Shown piece after piece: positions 5,925-33,130 of a DNA stretch of 64,000 nucleotides (position 1 is the stretch's first letter; each line of letters opens with the position of its first letter). The position numbers were made by a program, and so were the translations under genes. Source of the DNA: Vicinamibacterales bacterium (GTDB lineage: Bacteria > Acidobacteriota > Vicinamibacteria > Vicinamibacterales > UBA8438); contig OZ242323.1 in NCBI GenBank assembly GCA_965208165.1, forward strand, positions 1,364,078 through 1,428,077. Direction: 5' to 3'. The notes beneath the pieces were generated by a model, which worked only from the letters and a program-made list of their open reading frames with translations, was not told the origin of the DNA and did not search any database.

Positions 5925-6136
5925 CGCCGCCGGGTCGAAGCGAGACGCCGCCGGGTCGAAGCGAGACGCCGCCGGGTCAAAGCGAGACGCCGCCGGGTCG
6001 AAGCGAGACGCCGCCGGGTCGCGAGAAGCCGGCCGGGTCAAAGCGAGACGCCGACCGGGTTGAAGCGAGACGCCGGCCGGGTCGAAGCGAGAAACCGGCC
6101 GGGTCGAAGCGAGAAGCCGGCCGAGTCGGAGCAGAG
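5925..6136. repeat. tandem repeat, 21-bp unit x about 10 (GCCGGGTCGAAGCGAGACGCC)
   Basis: Head-to-tail copies that degenerate toward the 3' side; intergenic. Confidence 0.85.
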
Positions 6137-6143
6137 GCGGCCG

Positions 6144-16045: not shown

Positions 16046-16096
16046 CGCTCGACCTCCTCGGCCGATCCTGCGGTCGCCGGTCCCAAGGTGCGGTCC

Positions 16097-16470
16097 GGTT
16101 CACGCCAGTCCAAGCACCTCCTCCATCACCAGTCGCGGCCCGCGGTCGTGGTCCCGCACGACGTTGCGCGTCCGGTTTCACGCGAGTCCAAGCACGTCTT
16201 CCATGACCAGCCGCGGACCGCGGTCGTGGTCCCGTACGACGTTGCGCGTCCGGTCTCACGCGAGTCCAAGCACCTCCATGACCAGCCGCGGACCGCGGTC
16301 GTGGTCCCGTACGACGTTGCGCGTCCGGTTTCACGCGAGTCCAAGCACCTCCTCCATGACCAGCCGCGGACCGCGGTCGTGGTCCCGTACGACGTTGCGC
16401 GTCCGGTCTCACGCGAGTCCAAGCACCTCCTCCATGACCAGCCGCGGACCGCGGTCGTGGTCCCGCACGA
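16097..16470. repeat. tandem repeat: 75-bp unit x5 duplicating the 3' end plus stop codon of the carboxylesterase gene
   Basis: Unit GGT(Y)TCACGCGAGTCCAAGCACCTCCTCCATGACCAGCCGCGGACCGCGGTCGTGGTCCCGTACGACGTTGCGCGTCC; one copy is 72 bp. Each copy encodes ...RDHDRGPRLVMEEVLGLA* on the minus strand. The last copy is the genuine gene end. Confidence 0.85.
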
Positions 16471-18482: not shown

Positions 18483-18971
18483 TCACGGCTCGCGCAGCTC
18501 CACGGGCTGACCGTGCGGGGTGTGGCGGTAGGCGTCGGCCCACGCCTCCTTGCGGGCGTGGAGGGCCGGCGCGTCGGTCAGGCCCTTGGCGGCGGCGAGG
18601 CGCTCGAGGGTGGCGACCCAGTGGTGGTAGTAGCGCGAGCCGTCGTCGGGCTCGCCCTGCGCGGCGGCGGCGCGAAGCTCGTCGGCGAGGGCGCCGGTCC
18701 ATTCCTTCCAGGTGAAGTGGCCCTGCTCGCTGAGGCTGACGGCGAGGGCGAACGCCTGCGCCTGCCACGGCTCCGCGAACACGGGTCCGTCCTCGTCGCG
18801 CGGCAGCGGAGGGAGGGCGGCGAGCCGTTCGGCGTCCAGCCGCGGCACGGCGGGCCGGGGCGCGCGGGGGGGTGGCTCAGCCGTCGGTCCGTCGGCCCGC
18901 GGCGCCGGGAGGGCGTCCGGCCTAGGGGCGCCGGGGCCCGGTGCGCGGGGCCCAGGGTCAGGCAGGTTCAA
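18483..18971 (-). CDS. nitrile hydratase accessory (activator/metallochaperone) protein
   Basis: ...PVFAEPWQAQAFALAVSLSEQGHFTWKEWTGAL...YYHHWVATLERLAAAKGL...TPHGQPVEL matches the NHase beta-homologue accessory family. Overlaps the nthB stop. Confidence 0.75.
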   Translation of the reverse strand: MNLPDPGPRAPGPGAPRPDALPAPRADGPTAEPPPRAPRPAVPRLDAERLAALPPLPRDEDGPVFAEPWQAQAFALAVSLSEQGHFTWKEWTGALADELRAAAAQGEPDDGSRYYHHWVATLERLAAAKGLTDAPALHARKEAWADAYRHTPHGQPVELREP

Positions 18972-19611
18972 GGTGGTCCTCCCAGAGATCGACGTAGACG
19001 GTGTCGCGCGCGGACGCGCGCTCTCCCCACAGGTCGCGCGCCGTGAAGCGCACGGTGTAGACGTGCTGGGGCGGGCGGTCGATCGCCTGCCCGGCTTCGT
19101 CGGTGTCCTGCAGGGCGTACACGCCGTTGTCCCGCTTGACGACGCCCGTCTTGCCGCGCGTGTAGCGCGGCAGCCGCGTGTGTCCCGGCGGATGCAGATT
19201 GCGCGCGCGCACGTCCTCGCCCGGTCGGAAGCGCGGTGGCACGTCGGCGTTCAGTCGCCCGGGGCCGGAGGGGCGCGCGACGGGCCCGGGGCGGAGAGCC
19301 AACCCCGCCGGTCCCGGCCCCGGCCGTCCCGTTTCGAGCTCGGCCCTCGTCACCAGGCCGCTGCGTAGGAGCCGGTCCATCGATATCGCGAACCAGCGCT
19401 CGTAGTACGACATGCGCAGGTAGTCGGCGGGGGGGATGCGCTCGAGGTCGTAGCGGAAGCTGCCCCAGCCCGGCACCCGGTCCTTGGGCCGGAGGGCGGC
19501 GCGGATGGCGAACACGCGGCCCTCCCAGGGGTGGTGGAAGACGGGCTCGTCGTCTTCGCGCTCGACGGGGCCGAATCCGTCCATGCCGCCCATGTCGTGG
19601 ACGCCGTTCAT
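18958..19611 (-). CDS. nthB: nitrile hydratase beta subunit
   Basis: MNGVHDMGGMDGFGPVEREDDEPVFHHPWEGRVFAI...; unsplit beta chain, so nitrile hydratase rather than thiocyanate hydrolase. Confidence 0.85.
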   Translation of the reverse strand: MNGVHDMGGMDGFGPVEREDDEPVFHHPWEGRVFAIRAALRPKDRVPGWGSFRYDLERIPPADYLRMSYYERWFAISMDRLLRSGLVTRAELETGRPGPGPAGLALRPGPVARPSGPGRLNADVPPRFRPGEDVRARNLHPPGHTRLPRYTRGKTGVVKRDNGVYALQDTDEAGQAIDRPPQHVYTVRFTARDLWGERASARDTVYVDLWEDHLEPA

Positions 19612-19745
19612 GTCGATCTCCCGCCGGTGGGGGGCGGCTCGACGGCGACTTCGCGCTCGACGGGGCCGAATCCGTCCATGCCGCTCATGTCGTGGACGCC
19701 GTTCATGCGGACCTCCCGCCGGCCGGCGGCGGCACGACGGCAACG
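19556..19745. repeat. 95-bp tandem duplication of the nthA-3' / nthB-5' junction
   Basis: ATG-to-ATG period is 95 bp. The proximal copy gives a 32-aa [35 protein letters not shown] whose stop overlaps the real nthB ATG (ATGA), just as its own ATG overlaps the nthA stop. Confidence 0.75.
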
Positions 19746-20386
19746 CCGATCATGGCGTCGCGCGAGACGAGACCGGCCAGCTCTTCCTCGGTCATTCCCT
19801 CCGTGCCGGCAGGTCGTGCGGGCAGCACCAGGTAGCGGATCTCCGCCGTGCTGTCCCACACCCGCACCTCGATGTCGTCGCCGACGTCGACGCCGAACTC
19901 GCGCAGCACCGCGCGCGGCTCGATGACGGCGCGCGCGCGGTAGGCGTTGGACTTGTACCAGACCGGGGGCAGCCCGAGGGTCGGCCACGGGTAGCAGGAG
20001 CAGAGGGTGCAGACGACGAGGTTGTGGACATCGGCGGTGTTCTCGACGACCACCATGTGCTCGCCCTGGGTGCCGCCGAACCCGATCTCGGCGATGGCCG
20101 CGGTCCCGTCGTCGAGCAGCCGCGTCTTGTAGGCGGGGTCGGCCCAGGCCCGGGCCACGACCTGGGCGCCGTTCCGGGGGCCGATGCGGTTCTCGTATGC
20201 GTCGACCACCGCGTCGAGGTCGGCGGGGTCGACCATCTTCTTGTCGACGAGAATCGACTCGAGCGCGCGCACGCGCAGCGCGATGTCGTCGGGCACGACC
20301 TGGTGGTCGTGGTGGTGCTCGTGTCCGCCCGGCTCGCCGCCGGCCGCCTGCCTTCCGCGGGCCGGGCCGTTCTCCGATTCTGTCAT
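19703..20386 (-). CDS. nthA: nitrile hydratase alpha subunit, cobalt type
   Basis: Metal-binding [10 protein letters not shown] (Co-type CTLCSC); AGGAG RBS before MTESENG. Confidence 0.9.
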
Positions 20387-20560: not shown

Positions 20561-20764
20561 TTGGGACAGTGATCGACATAAGGTTGCCAACTGCAACTGG
20601 GCGCAACCCGTTTCTCACCGTTTCGGGCGCTTGGCGCGTGGCAAGGTAATTTCCGTCATTAGTTGGGACAGTGATCGACACAGGGTTGCCAACTGGACTC
20701 GGGCTCAGCCCGTATTCTACGGTTTCGCGCTCCAGGCAGACGGCAAGGCAATTCTCGTCAGTGT
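20561..20764. repeat. two tandem ~102-bp direct repeats upstream of nthA
   Basis: TTGGGACAGTGATCGACAyAgGGTTGCCAACTG... occurs twice head-to-tail between the NTF2-like gene stop and the nthA promoter region. Confidence 0.7.
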
Positions 20765-30488: not shown

Positions 30489-30872
30489 GTGGATCTCGTC
30501 AGCGTCGACCCGCGGGACCGGACACCGATCTACGTGCAGCTGGAGCGCGGGTTGCGTGCCGCGATCGCGGCGGGACGCCTGCAGCCGGGCGATCGACTGC
30601 CGACCGTCCGGCAGCTCGCGGTCGATCTGCGCGTCAACGCGAACACTGTCGCGCGCGTGTACGGCGAGCTCGAGCGGCGCGGCGTCCTCGAGACGCGGCG
30701 GGGCGTCGGCTCGTTCGTCAGCGCCACCCCGGCGCAGGCTCGCCCACCGCGGGAACACCATCGCCGGCTGAACGCGTTCGTCACGCGCCTGCTGGCGGAT
30801 GCCGACTCGGCCGGTTTCACCATCGACGAGGTGACCGCGGCGCTTCGCGCGCGTCAGCACGGAGGATCATGA
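30489..30872 (+). CDS. GntR-family transcriptional regulator (HTH only, short)
   Basis: LPTVRQLAVDLRVNANTVARVYGELERRGVLETRRGVGSFV is the GntR wHTH; GTG start; its stop overlaps the next gene's ATG. Confidence 0.8.
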   Translation: MDLVSVDPRDRTPIYVQLERGLRAAIAAGRLQPGDRLPTVRQLAVDLRVNANTVARVYGELERRGVLETRRGVGSFVSATPAQARPPREHHRRLNAFVTRLLADADSAGFTIDEVTAALRARQHGGS

Positions 30873-31817
30873 TGGCCCACACAATCTTCGGAGAGCGTCC
30901 GGAATCCCGCCTCCGCCACGTCCGGCGCATCAACGTCGTGTCGGTCGCAATCCTGCTGGCCTGGTGCGCGATCGCGTTGTGGGGATGGGAGACCACGGGC
31001 AACCCCGCGCCGCCGGTCGCGGCCGTGTCGATCGGACTCGTGCTGATGCAGTCGCCGCGGATCGCGCACCAGTGGGAACGGAGCGTCGTGCTGCGGCTCG
31101 GACGGTTCGTCGGCTTGCGGGGGCCCGGGCTGTTCTGGGTCGTGCCGTTCGTCGACCGCGTATCCGCGTGGGTCGACCAGCGCACGGTCACGACCACCTT
31201 CGCGGCCGAGCAGACCCTGACCTCGGACACCGTGCCGGTGAACGTCGACGCGGTGCTGTTCTGGATGGTGCACGACGTCGAAAAGGCGGCGCTCGAGGTC
31301 CAGGACTACGCGCAGGCGGTGAGCTGGGCGGCGCAGACCGCATTGCGCGACATCATCGGCCGGACCACCCTCGCCGATCTCCTGCGCGGCCGGGAACGCA
31401 TCGAGGCCGAGCTGCAGCAGCTCATCGATCAGCGCTCGAATCCGTGGGGGGTGACCGTGTCGTCCGTCGAGATGCGGGACGTCGTGATACCCGACGCGCT
31501 CCAGGACGCCATGTCGCGTGAAGCACAGGCGGCCCGCGAGAAGCAGGCGCGCGTCATATTGGGCGAAGCCGAGATGGCCATCGCCAGCTCGTTCCAGGAA
31601 GCCGCCAAGGTATCAGGAGAACCCGACCGCCCTGCATCTGCGGGCGATGAACATGCTCTACGAGGGCCTGAAGGAGAAGGGCGCGCTGATGCTGGTCCCG
31701 AGCAGCGCCGTCGAGTCGATGGGCATGGGCGGCCTGATGGGCGCCGCGGCGTTGCGACAGTCCGGCCTGGTGGGCGGGAGCGACACGCACGGCGCCGCCG
31801 GCCGTCCGCCGGAGTGA
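30869..31817 (+). pseudogene. SPFH/band-7 (stomatin/slipin-like) protein with frameshift near 31610
   Basis: N-terminal two thirds are in frame (TM helix plus SPFH core ...TTLADLLRGRERIEAELQQL...). The C-terminus YQENPTALHLRAMNMLYEGLKEKGALMLVP is in a different frame (track ORF 31518..31817). A 1-2 nt deletion at ..AAKV|YQE.. Confidence 0.7.
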
Positions 31818-31829
31818 AGGACGTCACGG

Positions 31830-31966
31830 GTCGGGTACCGCGACGAACGACGGTTCGGGGGCGGGCATGGACCGGGGAGATGCGACGCCAAGTCCCCGGT
31901 CGGGTACCGCGACGAACGACGGTTCGGGGGGCGGCATGGATCGGGAGATGCGACGCCAAGTCCCCG
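31830..31966. repeat. tandem repeat, ~69-bp unit x2, containing a CGGGGA...TCCCCG hairpin
   Basis: GTCGGGTACCGCGACGAACGACGGTTCGGGGGCGGGCATGGACCGGGGAGATGCGACGCCAAGTCCCCG occurs twice head-to-tail in the intergenic leader of the next gene. Confidence 0.7.
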
Positions 31967-31987
31967 GCGCTTGGAAGGAGTCGTCAC

Positions 31988-33130
31988 ATGAGCAGGATCA
32001 CCGGTTCGCATGCGGGGCTGTTGGCTACGTTGCTTCTCGTGACGCCCGGCGCCGGTGGAGCCGCGGCCGGGCAGGCCCCGCCACGGCCGGCCACGCCGTT
32101 CGAGCCGATTGCCGCGATCCTCCTTGCTTTCGAGCGGCACGCGATAGTCGCCGTCGGCGACCCGCACGACAACGAGCAGGCCCACGAGTTCCGGCTCTCG
32201 CTGATTCGCGACCCCCGGTTCGCGGCGGCCGTCGACGACATCGTGGTGGAATGGGGGAACGCCCACTATCAAGGCGTCATGGACCGCTTCGTCGACGGCG
32301 ACGACGTCCCCGACGCCGAGTTGCGCCAGGTCTGGCAGAACACTACGCATCCCGGACTGGGCAACGATCGGCCGATCACGGAAGCGTTCTTCCGGGCGGT
32401 GCGCGAGGTCAACGCGTCGCTCCCGCCTGAGCGCCGGCTCCGGGTCCTGCTCGGCGACCCCCCGATCGACTGGGATGCGGTGGAGAGCCGGGAGGACCAC
32501 CAGAAGTGGATAGAGCTGCGCGACACGCACGCCGCCGCGCTGATTCGACGCGAGGTGATCGAGAAGGGCCGGCGCGCTCTCGTCGTCTACGGCAGCATGC
32601 ACCTGCAGCGGCGGAATCTGTTCTCCAACTACGAGCTCGTCGAAGACCCGAACCTCCACACGCTCGTCCAGCAGCTCGAGCGCGAGGGCGGCGCGCGCGT
32701 GTTCACCGTCTGGCCGACGGCCTGGTCGACGGCGGGCGTCGACCTGCAGGAAGCGCAGCCTGACGTGGCGTCATGGCGGGCTCCCAGCCTTGCCCTGGTG
32801 CGCGGCACCGTGCTCGGGGCGGCGGACTTCAGCGCGTTCTACCCGGCCGAGGTGCCCCGCGCGACGATCCGGGACGGCCGGATCGTGACGAGCCGGGACG
32901 GCCGGATCGTGCCGGTTCCCCCTGAAGAGTGGCGCTCGTTGCCCGCCGAAGAGCAGTTCGACGCCGTGCTGTATCTCGGGCCTCCGTCCGACATGACGAG
33001 GTCGTTGCTCTCTCCTGCGCTATGTCGCGACCCGGCCTACATGGACATGCGCCGGGAACGCCTGTCGCTCGTGGAGATGCAGCGCAACCTGGAGCAGCTG
33101 CAGCGGTACTGCGCGCGGGTCGCGCCGTAG
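31988..33130 (+). CDS. hypothetical secreted protein (possibly ChaN/Tiki-like)
   Basis: Signal peptide; AIVAVGDPHDNEQAHEFRLSLIRD resembles the GExH-type motif of the ChaN/Tiki family. Tentative. Confidence 0.6.
   Translation: MSRITGSHAGLLATLLLVTPGAGGAAAGQAPPRPATPFEPIAAILLAFERHAIVAVGDPHDNEQAHEFRLSLIRDPRFAAAVDDIVVEWGNAHYQGVMDRFVDGDDVPDAELRQVWQNTTHPGLGNDRPITEAFFRAVREVNASLPPERRLRVLLGDPPIDWDAVESREDHQKWIELRDTHAAALIRREVIEKGRRALVVYGSMHLQRRNLFSNYELVEDPNLHTLVQQLEREGGARVFTVWPTAWSTAGVDLQEAQPDVASWRAPSLALVRGTVLGAADFSAFYPAEVPRATIRDGRIVTSRDGRIVPVPPEEWRSLPAEEQFDAVLYLGPPSDMTRSLLSPALCRDPAYMDMRRERLSLVEMQRNLEQLQRYCARVAP

Follow-up and report, generated by a model that had tools for sequence, protein, structure and literature searches.

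The nitrile hydratase (NHase) operon described here lies on the minus strand of a 64,000-nt stretch of contig OZ242323.1 from a Vicinamibacterales bacterium (hereafter the window), and the junction between its first two genes, nthA and nthB, carries a 95-bp tandem duplication that places a 32-codon open reading frame (ORF) between the two. The genes are arranged in the order alpha-beta-accessory (Table 1). The alpha subunit matches the TIGR01323 profile (E=1.9e-92; 308 bits, cut-off 249.85), and its closest solved structure is 3qxe_A, a cobalt (Co)-type NHase alpha subunit (E=2e-91). The metal motif of Co-type enzymes is V-C-T-L-C-S-C-Y, while iron (Fe)-type enzymes have S and T at its two variable positions; the translation of nthA in the window contains CTLCSCY, which we take to be the cobalt-type motif. 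The beta subunit scores 200 bits with TIGR03888 (E=4.2e-59, cut-off 152.2) and is closest to 3qxe_B (E=4.9e-52), so that the best solved relatives of both subunits come from a single Co-type enzyme, 3qxe, of the Pseudomonas putida type. The accessory gene, a homolog of the beta N-domain, scores 93.6 bits with TIGR03889 (cut-off 46), overlaps the end of nthB by 14 nt, and has the same extent in the gene calls of a relative, L162. The profile matches, metal motif and gene order together identify a Co-type NHase operon. In the alpha-beta-activator type of Co-NHase gene cluster, exemplified by P. putida NRRL-18668, maturation proceeds via an alpha-activator complex that exists besides the alpha2beta2 enzyme (PMC3511329).

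The duplication had been placed at 19556-19745 in a preliminary description made from the sequence, and this is right to within 1-2 bases. Tandem Repeats Finder reports 2.0 copies of period 95 at 19554-19741 (91% matches, 0% indels, score 320), and comparison of the minus strand with itself gives 133 matches of 246 at offset 95, against 58-92 at the neighboring offsets (90-100). A unit runs from the last 38 nt of nthA, which include a Shine-Dalgarno sequence, across the ATGA overlap to nucleotide 57 of nthB. We also considered a register at offset 92, with a decoy tail derived from the nthB codons that follow, and rejected it, as it yields 92 matches compared to 133 at offset 95 and the tail matches that of nthA at 30 of 38 positions. 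The two units are identical at 86 of 95 positions, and their nine mismatches are distributed unevenly, with one in the 57 positions of the nthB 5' part and eight in the 38 positions of the nthA tail (Fisher p=0.0025).

As first described, the 32-aa frame starts on the stop codon of nthA and ends on the ATG of nthB, with an ATGA at either side. In the motif known as -4 coupling, the start and stop codons overlap as NTGA and the Shine-Dalgarno sequence lies within the upstream ORF (PMC12548453); both junctions in the window have this form, each with an ATGA and a Shine-Dalgarno-like sequence 5-6 nt 5' of the ATG, inside the preceding ORF. The period is not divisible by three (95 = 3x31+2), and since the junction is a -4 overlap, every extra unit automatically forms another short ORF running from stop to start. 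Residues 1-19 of the mini-ORF product give a weak match to the NHase_beta_N profile, and equivalent mini-ORFs are annotated as genes in three relatives (L162, L175, and L176).

Table 1. Components of the nitrile hydratase locus in the window and forms of the nthA/nthB junction in its relatives
Feature	Positions	Strand	Description	Basis
nthA	19703..20386	minus	Co-type nitrile hydratase alpha subunit, 227 aa	TIGR01323, 3qxe_A, CTLCSCY
nthB	18958..19611	minus	Nitrile hydratase beta subunit, 217 aa	TIGR03888, 3qxe_B
NHase accessory gene	18483..18971	minus	Activator, P14K-like	TIGR03889 (E=5.4e-27)
Repeat unit 1	19650..19744	minus	Genuine nthA 3' tail and decoy copy of nthB codons 1-19	Period-95 register, Tandem Repeats Finder
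Repeat unit 2	19555..19649	minus	Decoy nthA tail (VAVEPPPTGGRST, then stop) and genuine nthB codons 1-19	Period-95 register
Relay mini-ORF	19608..19706 (stop included)	minus	32 codons	ORF list and ORF chain walk
ATGA overlap 1	19703..19706	minus	nthA stop / mini-ORF start	Read in sequence
ATGA overlap 2	19608..19611	minus	Mini-ORF stop / nthB start	Read in sequence
Shine-Dalgarno-like GGGAGG	19712..19717	minus	Inside nthA tail, 5 nt before mini-ORF ATG	Read in sequence
Shine-Dalgarno-like GGGAGA	19617..19622	minus	Inside mini-ORF, before genuine nthB ATG	Read in sequence
L001			Two 95-bp units	
L004			Two 95-bp units	
L003			At least three units; contig starts within array	
L162			Four units, as three consecutive annotated 32-aa genes; 1.3-Mb contig	
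L170			30-aa ORF, 89-nt spacer	
L171			Spans L003-type array; fused 64-aa ORF	
L173			Fused 62-aa ORF	
L174			Fused 64-aa ORF	
L175			One 32-aa ORF	
L176			Two separate 32-aa ORFs; 7.0-Mb contig labelled 71x	
L002, L005, L006, L007, L163-L166, L169, L177			Single-copy junctions within the clade	

Junction arrays in related genomes

Relatives were sought by a scan with NthB limited to one genome per species, after which the contigs of the close NthB clusters were looked up. This comparison with orthologous operons, proposed in the preliminary description, shows that the duplication recurs. The closest NthB relatives are metagenome-assembled genomes of Vicinamibacterales, and the clade at 83% or more NthB identity contains a mixture of single-copy junctions and arrays. 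At least 11 other independent assemblies of this clade carry an array, with 2-4 units each, and an array is present in about 60% of the sampled clade lineages. The 95-bp type is found in L001, L004, L003/L171/L172, L162, L167, L170, L173, L174, L175, and L176; these carriers stem from different samples and include both long-read and short-read assemblies. Outside the clade, no second copy of the nthB start was present within 600-700 nt upstream at approximately 160 NHase loci from Acidobacteriota, Gemmatimonadota, and others. As for the ordinary overlap, 135 of 173 beta starts in the retrieved loci have an ORF of at least 150 aa that ends on the overlapping TGA.

Additional searches contributed little to this distribution. 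A scan of metagenome contigs with NthB returned L081 as the sole close relative, and this contig is cut off before the junction. A protein search with a 64-aa concatenate of the decoy peptide recovered only fused double decoys (P0121-P0124), in a collection that is nearly devoid of proteins below about 35 aa and therefore allows no estimate of prevalence; the other short matches (P0125 onward) were rejected as decoys, being beta genes from unrelated lineages that are truncated or carry frameshifts. In L002, L004-L007, and others, tblastn matches extend over longer ranges that resemble extra copies; these were likewise rejected, as they correspond to the accessory gene, the homolog of the beta N-domain. 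L035, with an 80-nt spacer and a 27-aa ORF, was not counted as a firm third independent type due to frameshifts in both nthA and nthB. At some more distant Vicinamibacterales loci (L014, 3001 and 4109; L009, approximately 4060), a second beta-like gene lies about 1.1 kb downstream of the first; these loci contain two NHase beta paralogs each, and nthA does not overlap nthB there.

Short-read contigs of three array-bearing relatives (L003, L167, and L168) have their position 1 inside or exactly at the array, the break in L168 falling exactly at the nthB ATG. Such breaks at the array could be taken as a sign that the duplication in the window is an artefact of assembly or sequencing. However, the two copies in the window differ at 9 of 95 positions, both unit types are present in the independent 1.3-Mb contig of L162, and diverged forms occur in many long-read and short-read assemblies, including the 7.0-Mb contig of L176. 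The divergence of the copies and their presence in independent assemblies make an artefact very unlikely, and we give this explanation next to no weight. The repeat breaks short-read assemblies, and the frequency of arrays in short-read data is probably underestimated for this reason.

All carriers of the 95-bp type share one novel joint, in which nthB codon 19 (GAA) is followed by GTCGCC. Their decoy tails also share states that are absent from the genuine copies, namely GAG in place of GTG and CCCC(G/C)ACC in place of CCGCCGGCC, and in most lineages the decoy nthB part has GCC for GTC at codon 16. The nthB DNA of these carriers differs by 10-15%, and single-copy relatives lie among them on the nthB tree. 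The common boundary and the derived decoy states shared across lineages show a single, old origin of the 95-bp type. In the window lineage, the nthB part of the decoy carries the lineage-specific states of the genuine copy, and the tail retains the old decoy states; in combination with the uneven mismatches (1/57 compared to 8/38), this suggests that part of the unit has undergone gene conversion.

A different array is present in L178, a member of the same clade whose NthB is 85% identical. It contains four nearly identical 77-nt units (77 is also 2 mod 3) with boundaries that differ from those of the 95-bp type, as each unit takes the last 59 nt of nthA and the first 18 nt of nthB, and it forms three 26-aa ORFs, each running from ATGA to ATGA. 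Judging from these boundaries, the 77-bp array is a second, independent duplication of the nthA/nthB junction.

Copy number differs among close relatives, with junctions of 1, 2, 3, or 4 units of tens of base pairs between the operon genes. Downstream of the array, L162 and the window are 100% identical (2284 nt), and upstream of it their identity is 99.78% (1374 nt), yet the arrays contain four and two units, respectively. Within L162, units 1 and 3 and units 2 and 4 match at 94 of 95 positions compared to 85 of 95 for units 1 and 2, indicating that a window-type block of two units was re-duplicated as a 190-bp piece. Similarly, contigs that encode the identical beta protein P0007 (98.3% DNA identity) have one unit in L163-L166 and at least three in L167. 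The earlier suggestion of a recent slippage event thus holds in part: copy number is changing now, as shown by two versus four units at 99.8-100% flank identity, but the 95-bp type itself is old, given decoy substitutions common to lineages that are 10-15% apart. Contraction may have left a trace in L169 (1120-1195), which has one unit and a chimeric alpha C-terminus, VAVVPPPGGGRST, with the decoy-type ending ...GGRST; this tail appears to be the footprint of an array collapse by recombination between two tails. The C-terminal residues of NthA are rewritten upon such a collapse. In the window, the match of NthA to its solved relative ends at residue 221 of 227, and the tail lies beyond the structure-aligned part.

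Possible constraint on the ORF chain

The arrays were examined with an automated walk that starts from the ATG on the nthA stop and proceeds ORF by ORF to each overlapping start. In 12 of 13 arrays, indel-altered and 77-bp arrays included, each unit ORF ends in an overlap with the start of its neighbor and the walk arrives precisely at the nthB ATG; the remaining array, that of L161, comes from a contig with 1.3x coverage and indel errors. The chain survives small indels in several lineages. A -6 deletion in L170 shortens the ORF and leaves the chain intact. In three two-decoy arrays the indels fuse the ORFs, with the total spacer remaining 2 mod 3: L171 has gained one nucleotide (+1) at the internal ATG, L173 has lost five (-5), and L174 has gained one (+1). 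The chain of two unfused ORFs in L176 is likewise intact, and in the low-quality L035, with a possible -15, the last ORF still ends on the nthB ATGA. Indels of other classes would be expected to yield an N-terminally extended beta subunit or an ORF that runs out of frame into nthB. The only N-terminally extended beta subunit found among 35 close NthB clusters is that of L161 (P0024, 307 aa), which was discounted as it arises from compensating frameshifts within nthB. The GGGAG core of a Shine-Dalgarno sequence is retained ahead of almost every array ATG in the relatives, and both independent periods, 95 and 77, are 2 mod 3, for which the chance expectation is 1/9. This pattern is suggestive, though not conclusive, of a constraint on the architecture of the chain.

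Several points weigh against such a constraint. In-register recombination keeps a period-95 chain for free, which leaves only a small number of informative events, namely the two origins and four or five indels of small size. L173 and L174 are subject to ascertainment bias, having come from a search that returns only fused ORFs of at least about 35-40 aa, and both L035 and L161 derive from error-prone contigs. Chance keeps short ORFs open when the genome is GC-rich. The genuine nthB has a Shine-Dalgarno sequence of its own and could be translated independently. Predicted RNA folds show no gain in stability over shuffled controls, either for the single-copy junction or for the individual units of the window (z = -0.63, +1.13, and +0.88). 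These values speak neither for nor against occlusion of the nthB ribosome-binding site, and an explanation based on such occlusion or on a structured element, finding no positive support, was set aside. The nodes of the nthB tree within the clade are weak (8-72% bootstrap), which leaves the number of array losses uncertain. Finally, both the translation of the relay ORFs and the dependence of nthB on coupling at this junction are things that we infer from the sequence.

Taken to their limit, these points describe a purely neutral passenger, in which nthB relies on its own Shine-Dalgarno sequence for translation, whatever happens upstream, and the ORF chain is incidental to duplicating an ATGA junction. 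Every unit would duplicate a Shine-Dalgarno sequence and an ATG in any case, recombination would hold the period without selection, stop codons are rare in GC-rich sequence, and the folds give no sign of special occlusion of the ribosome-binding site. Such an account does not readily explain why both origins have periods of 2 mod 3, why all of the informative indels (-6, +1, -5, +1, and possibly -15) leave the chain ending on the nthB ATGA, or why the close clusters show no extended beta subunit apart from that of L161, and we consider it unlikely.

If the chain is constrained, the peptide that it encodes does not appear to be the reason. Over the nthB 5' part, the ratio of nonsynonymous to synonymous differences (pN/pS) is 0.53 for decoy versus genuine copies and 0.23 among genuine copies; over the invariant motif codons 2-14, the corresponding values are 0.43 and 0.10. 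The invariant beta residues G3, H5, D6, G8, G9, F13, and G14 are replaced in several decoys. The features that are retained instead are the reading frame, the ATGA overlaps, and the GGGAG in front of nearly all ATGs. The decoy peptide is thus under relaxed constraint and looks like a by-product. A functional peptide, in which the 32-aa product with its first 19 beta residues has the alpha subunit or the activator as its target, for instance by mimicking the beta N-terminal arm, could account for the NHase_beta_N match of residues 1-19 and for the retention of MNGVHDMGGMDGFGP in several decoys. This is highly improbable in view of the relaxed constraint relative to genuine beta, the loss of invariant motif residues in L001, L004, L170, and L174, and the independent array of L178, which retains only six beta residues. 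Gene conversion is the best explanation for the resemblance of the window decoy to genuine beta, given the contrast with its tail.

Weighing this evidence, we consider it probable that the array is a junction minisatellite that is tolerated and filtered for keeping translational coupling, with selection acting on the architecture and the peptide as a by-product. In the scenario we propose, the nthA-stop/nthB-start junction was tandemly duplicated a single time in an ancestor of the Vicinamibacterales clade, giving rise to the 95-bp type. On finishing nthA, ribosomes would start again at the ATG that overlaps its stop, that of the first relay ORF, or would keep the mRNA open so that new ribosomes could load at the adjacent Shine-Dalgarno sequence. 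This hand-over would be repeated at each ATGA, through one to three relay ORFs, until the genuine nthB ATG is reached. Later, unequal recombination or slippage would have enlarged and shortened the array, gene conversion would have homogenized it in part, and it would sometimes have collapsed to one copy. Selection would require the chain to land on the nthB ATGA and would not target the peptide sequence. The efficiency of coupling is reported to drop quickly with distance (PMC12548453). Coupling would thus be expected to be lost over an untranslated spacer of 95-285 nt but to survive a chain of -4 overlaps. Of the preliminary relay-ORF interpretation, the anatomy is borne out, and the relay reading gains support from the comparison of arrays, in which the chain lands on nthB.

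The net effect of the chain on beta yield may be small and could run in either direction, through loss at each hand-over or through extra loading. Subunit ratios could matter in this enzyme type in view of the alpha-activator maturation complex. The mini-ORF was originally suggested to tune alpha:beta stoichiometry, and an extended form of this idea holds that the relay-ORF number is an adaptive rheostat, in which selected, heritable and reversible changes by unequal recombination set how many ribosomes arrive at nthB and the accessory gene relative to nthA, and so tune the alpha:beta:activator stoichiometry. Populations would then be adjusting the subunit and chaperone stoichiometry of a metalloenzyme. 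Consistent with this, copy number differs between near-identical genomes (two versus four units; one versus at least three), about 60% of the lineages have an array, the same junction has been duplicated twice, and the existence of an alpha-activator complex (PMC3511329) means that alpha may be needed in excess of beta. On the other hand, the direction of the effect is unpredictable, as each decoy adds a Shine-Dalgarno sequence and an ATG able to load extra ribosomes, and the 64-kb window contains other tandem arrays of 69-102 bp, both within genes and at their ends, so that a mutational tendency combined with tolerance would suffice without any benefit. We therefore regard the rheostat as doubtful, if worth keeping in mind, and favor the tolerated junction minisatellite.

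Other tandem repeats

Several further tandem repeats were detected in the window. On the minus strand at 16089-16470, five tandem 78/75-bp copies (93% matches) derive from the 3' end of a carboxylesterase gene that ends at 16409. The unit consists of the last ~60 nt of the gene and ~18 nt past its stop, and each copy reads ...RDHDRGPRLVMEEVLGLA and then TGA. With it, the window contains a second minisatellite at a gene end, at a distance of only 3 kb from the NHase array. Upstream of nthA, between this gene and a SnoaL-like gene, two 102-bp tandem copies (79% matches) lie at 20561-20760. Their best conserved core, of ~33 nt, reads CAGTTGGCAACC(C/T)T(G/A)TGTCGATCACTGTCCCAA on the nthA sense strand, and the repeat may be a duplicated operator or promoter element; the length of this region differs in the relative L163. 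A 69-bp tandem duplication (2.0 copies, 94% matches) at 31829-31967 lies inside a 753-aa ORF (30869..33130, plus strand) and presumably forms an in-frame 23-aa repeat. At 5925-6143, a repeat with a 21/22-bp period (~10 copies, 86-88% matches) occupies a region of several long overlapping ORFs.

A comparable event is found in NthB itself in a relative on a 4.4-Mb contig, in which the 251-aa protein P0008 has an in-frame tandem duplication of 34 aa (102 nt) in the inter-domain linker (AVDRLVRNGLVTNDEIETGRPEPGPPGPILRPGP x2). P0008 indicates that the same kind of duplication occurs inside a coding region when the frame is kept, and together with the other duplications in the window it suggests that these genomes are prone to duplications of 70-100 bp. 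The duplications that survive would be those that are placed harmlessly, and at a -4 junction a harmless duplication is predicted to be one with a period of 2 mod 3.

Relation to known systems

The arrays show that a duplicated gene junction can survive over long evolutionary times, with a changing number of copies, if the stop/start overlaps stay in register through its period, and they provide indirect evidence for selection on the translational coupling of NHase subunits in uncultured soil bacteria. They also constitute a natural allelic series (1-4 units, fused or unfused ORFs, 95-bp or 77-bp periods) in which ribosome hand-over across successive -4 overlaps could be measured; with zero to three relay ORFs and fused variants, this series could separate reinitiation from RNA-unfolding models of coupling. 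On a practical level, these ORFs of 26-32 aa are skipped or mishandled by gene callers, and the array breaks short-read assemblies. Searches of the literature turned up no account of arrays of this kind in NHase operons or Vicinamibacterales.

The ordinary ATGA coupling of alpha and beta in Co-type NHase operons occurs in the same alpha-beta-accessory order, and the window differs from it in that the overlap is split in two, 95 nt apart, by the inserted ORF. The bicistronic design (BCD) and natural leader-ORF coupling employ a short leader ORF that holds the downstream Shine-Dalgarno sequence, ends overlapping the downstream start, and brings ribosomes to the gene (PMC12548453). As proposed for the relay ORF, the sole role of such a leader is to drive or de-structure downstream initiation. 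Unlike the relay ORF, the BCD leader is engineered and single, while the NHase leader is a natural duplicate of the junction, is coupled upstream as well, and can be chained up to three times. Contingency loci, with their phase-variable simple-sequence repeats, resemble the NHase array in that slippage or recombination changes the repeat number between near-identical strains at a site able to affect translation; their units are of 1-8 bp and switch the reading frame, in contrast to NHase units of 77-95 bp that leave the genes intact in every allele seen.

The closest natural system is that of MIRUs (mycobacterial interspersed repetitive units), a class of variable-number tandem repeats (VNTRs) in which, as Supply et al. 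1997 are summarized in PMC12548453, the unit ORF is coupled at -4 to its neighbor and is thought to minimize the impact on expression. The array between senX3 and regX3 contains MIRU units of 77 bp and 53 bp (PMC4213456), and we calculate that these lengths are also 2 mod 3. Both systems consist of tandem repeats of tens of base pairs between co-transcribed genes, with a number that varies among strains and short ORFs coupled at -4. MIRUs differ in forming a dispersed and apparently mobile family at many mycobacterial loci, while the NHase unit matches only its own locus within the 64-kb window, is copied from the local gene ends, occurs in Acidobacteriota, and has arisen at least twice with different boundaries; given this local derivation, sequence homology to MIRUs would not be expected. 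As far as its sequence organization indicates, the NHase array operates in the manner of a MIRU array without belonging to the MIRU family. It would extend the MIRU principle, that of a VNTR made harmless by coupled mini-ORFs, to another phylum, with repeats drawn from the flanking genes on two separate occasions. What the NHase array appears to add to the known coupled-ORF VNTRs is thus an example of local and recurrent origin.

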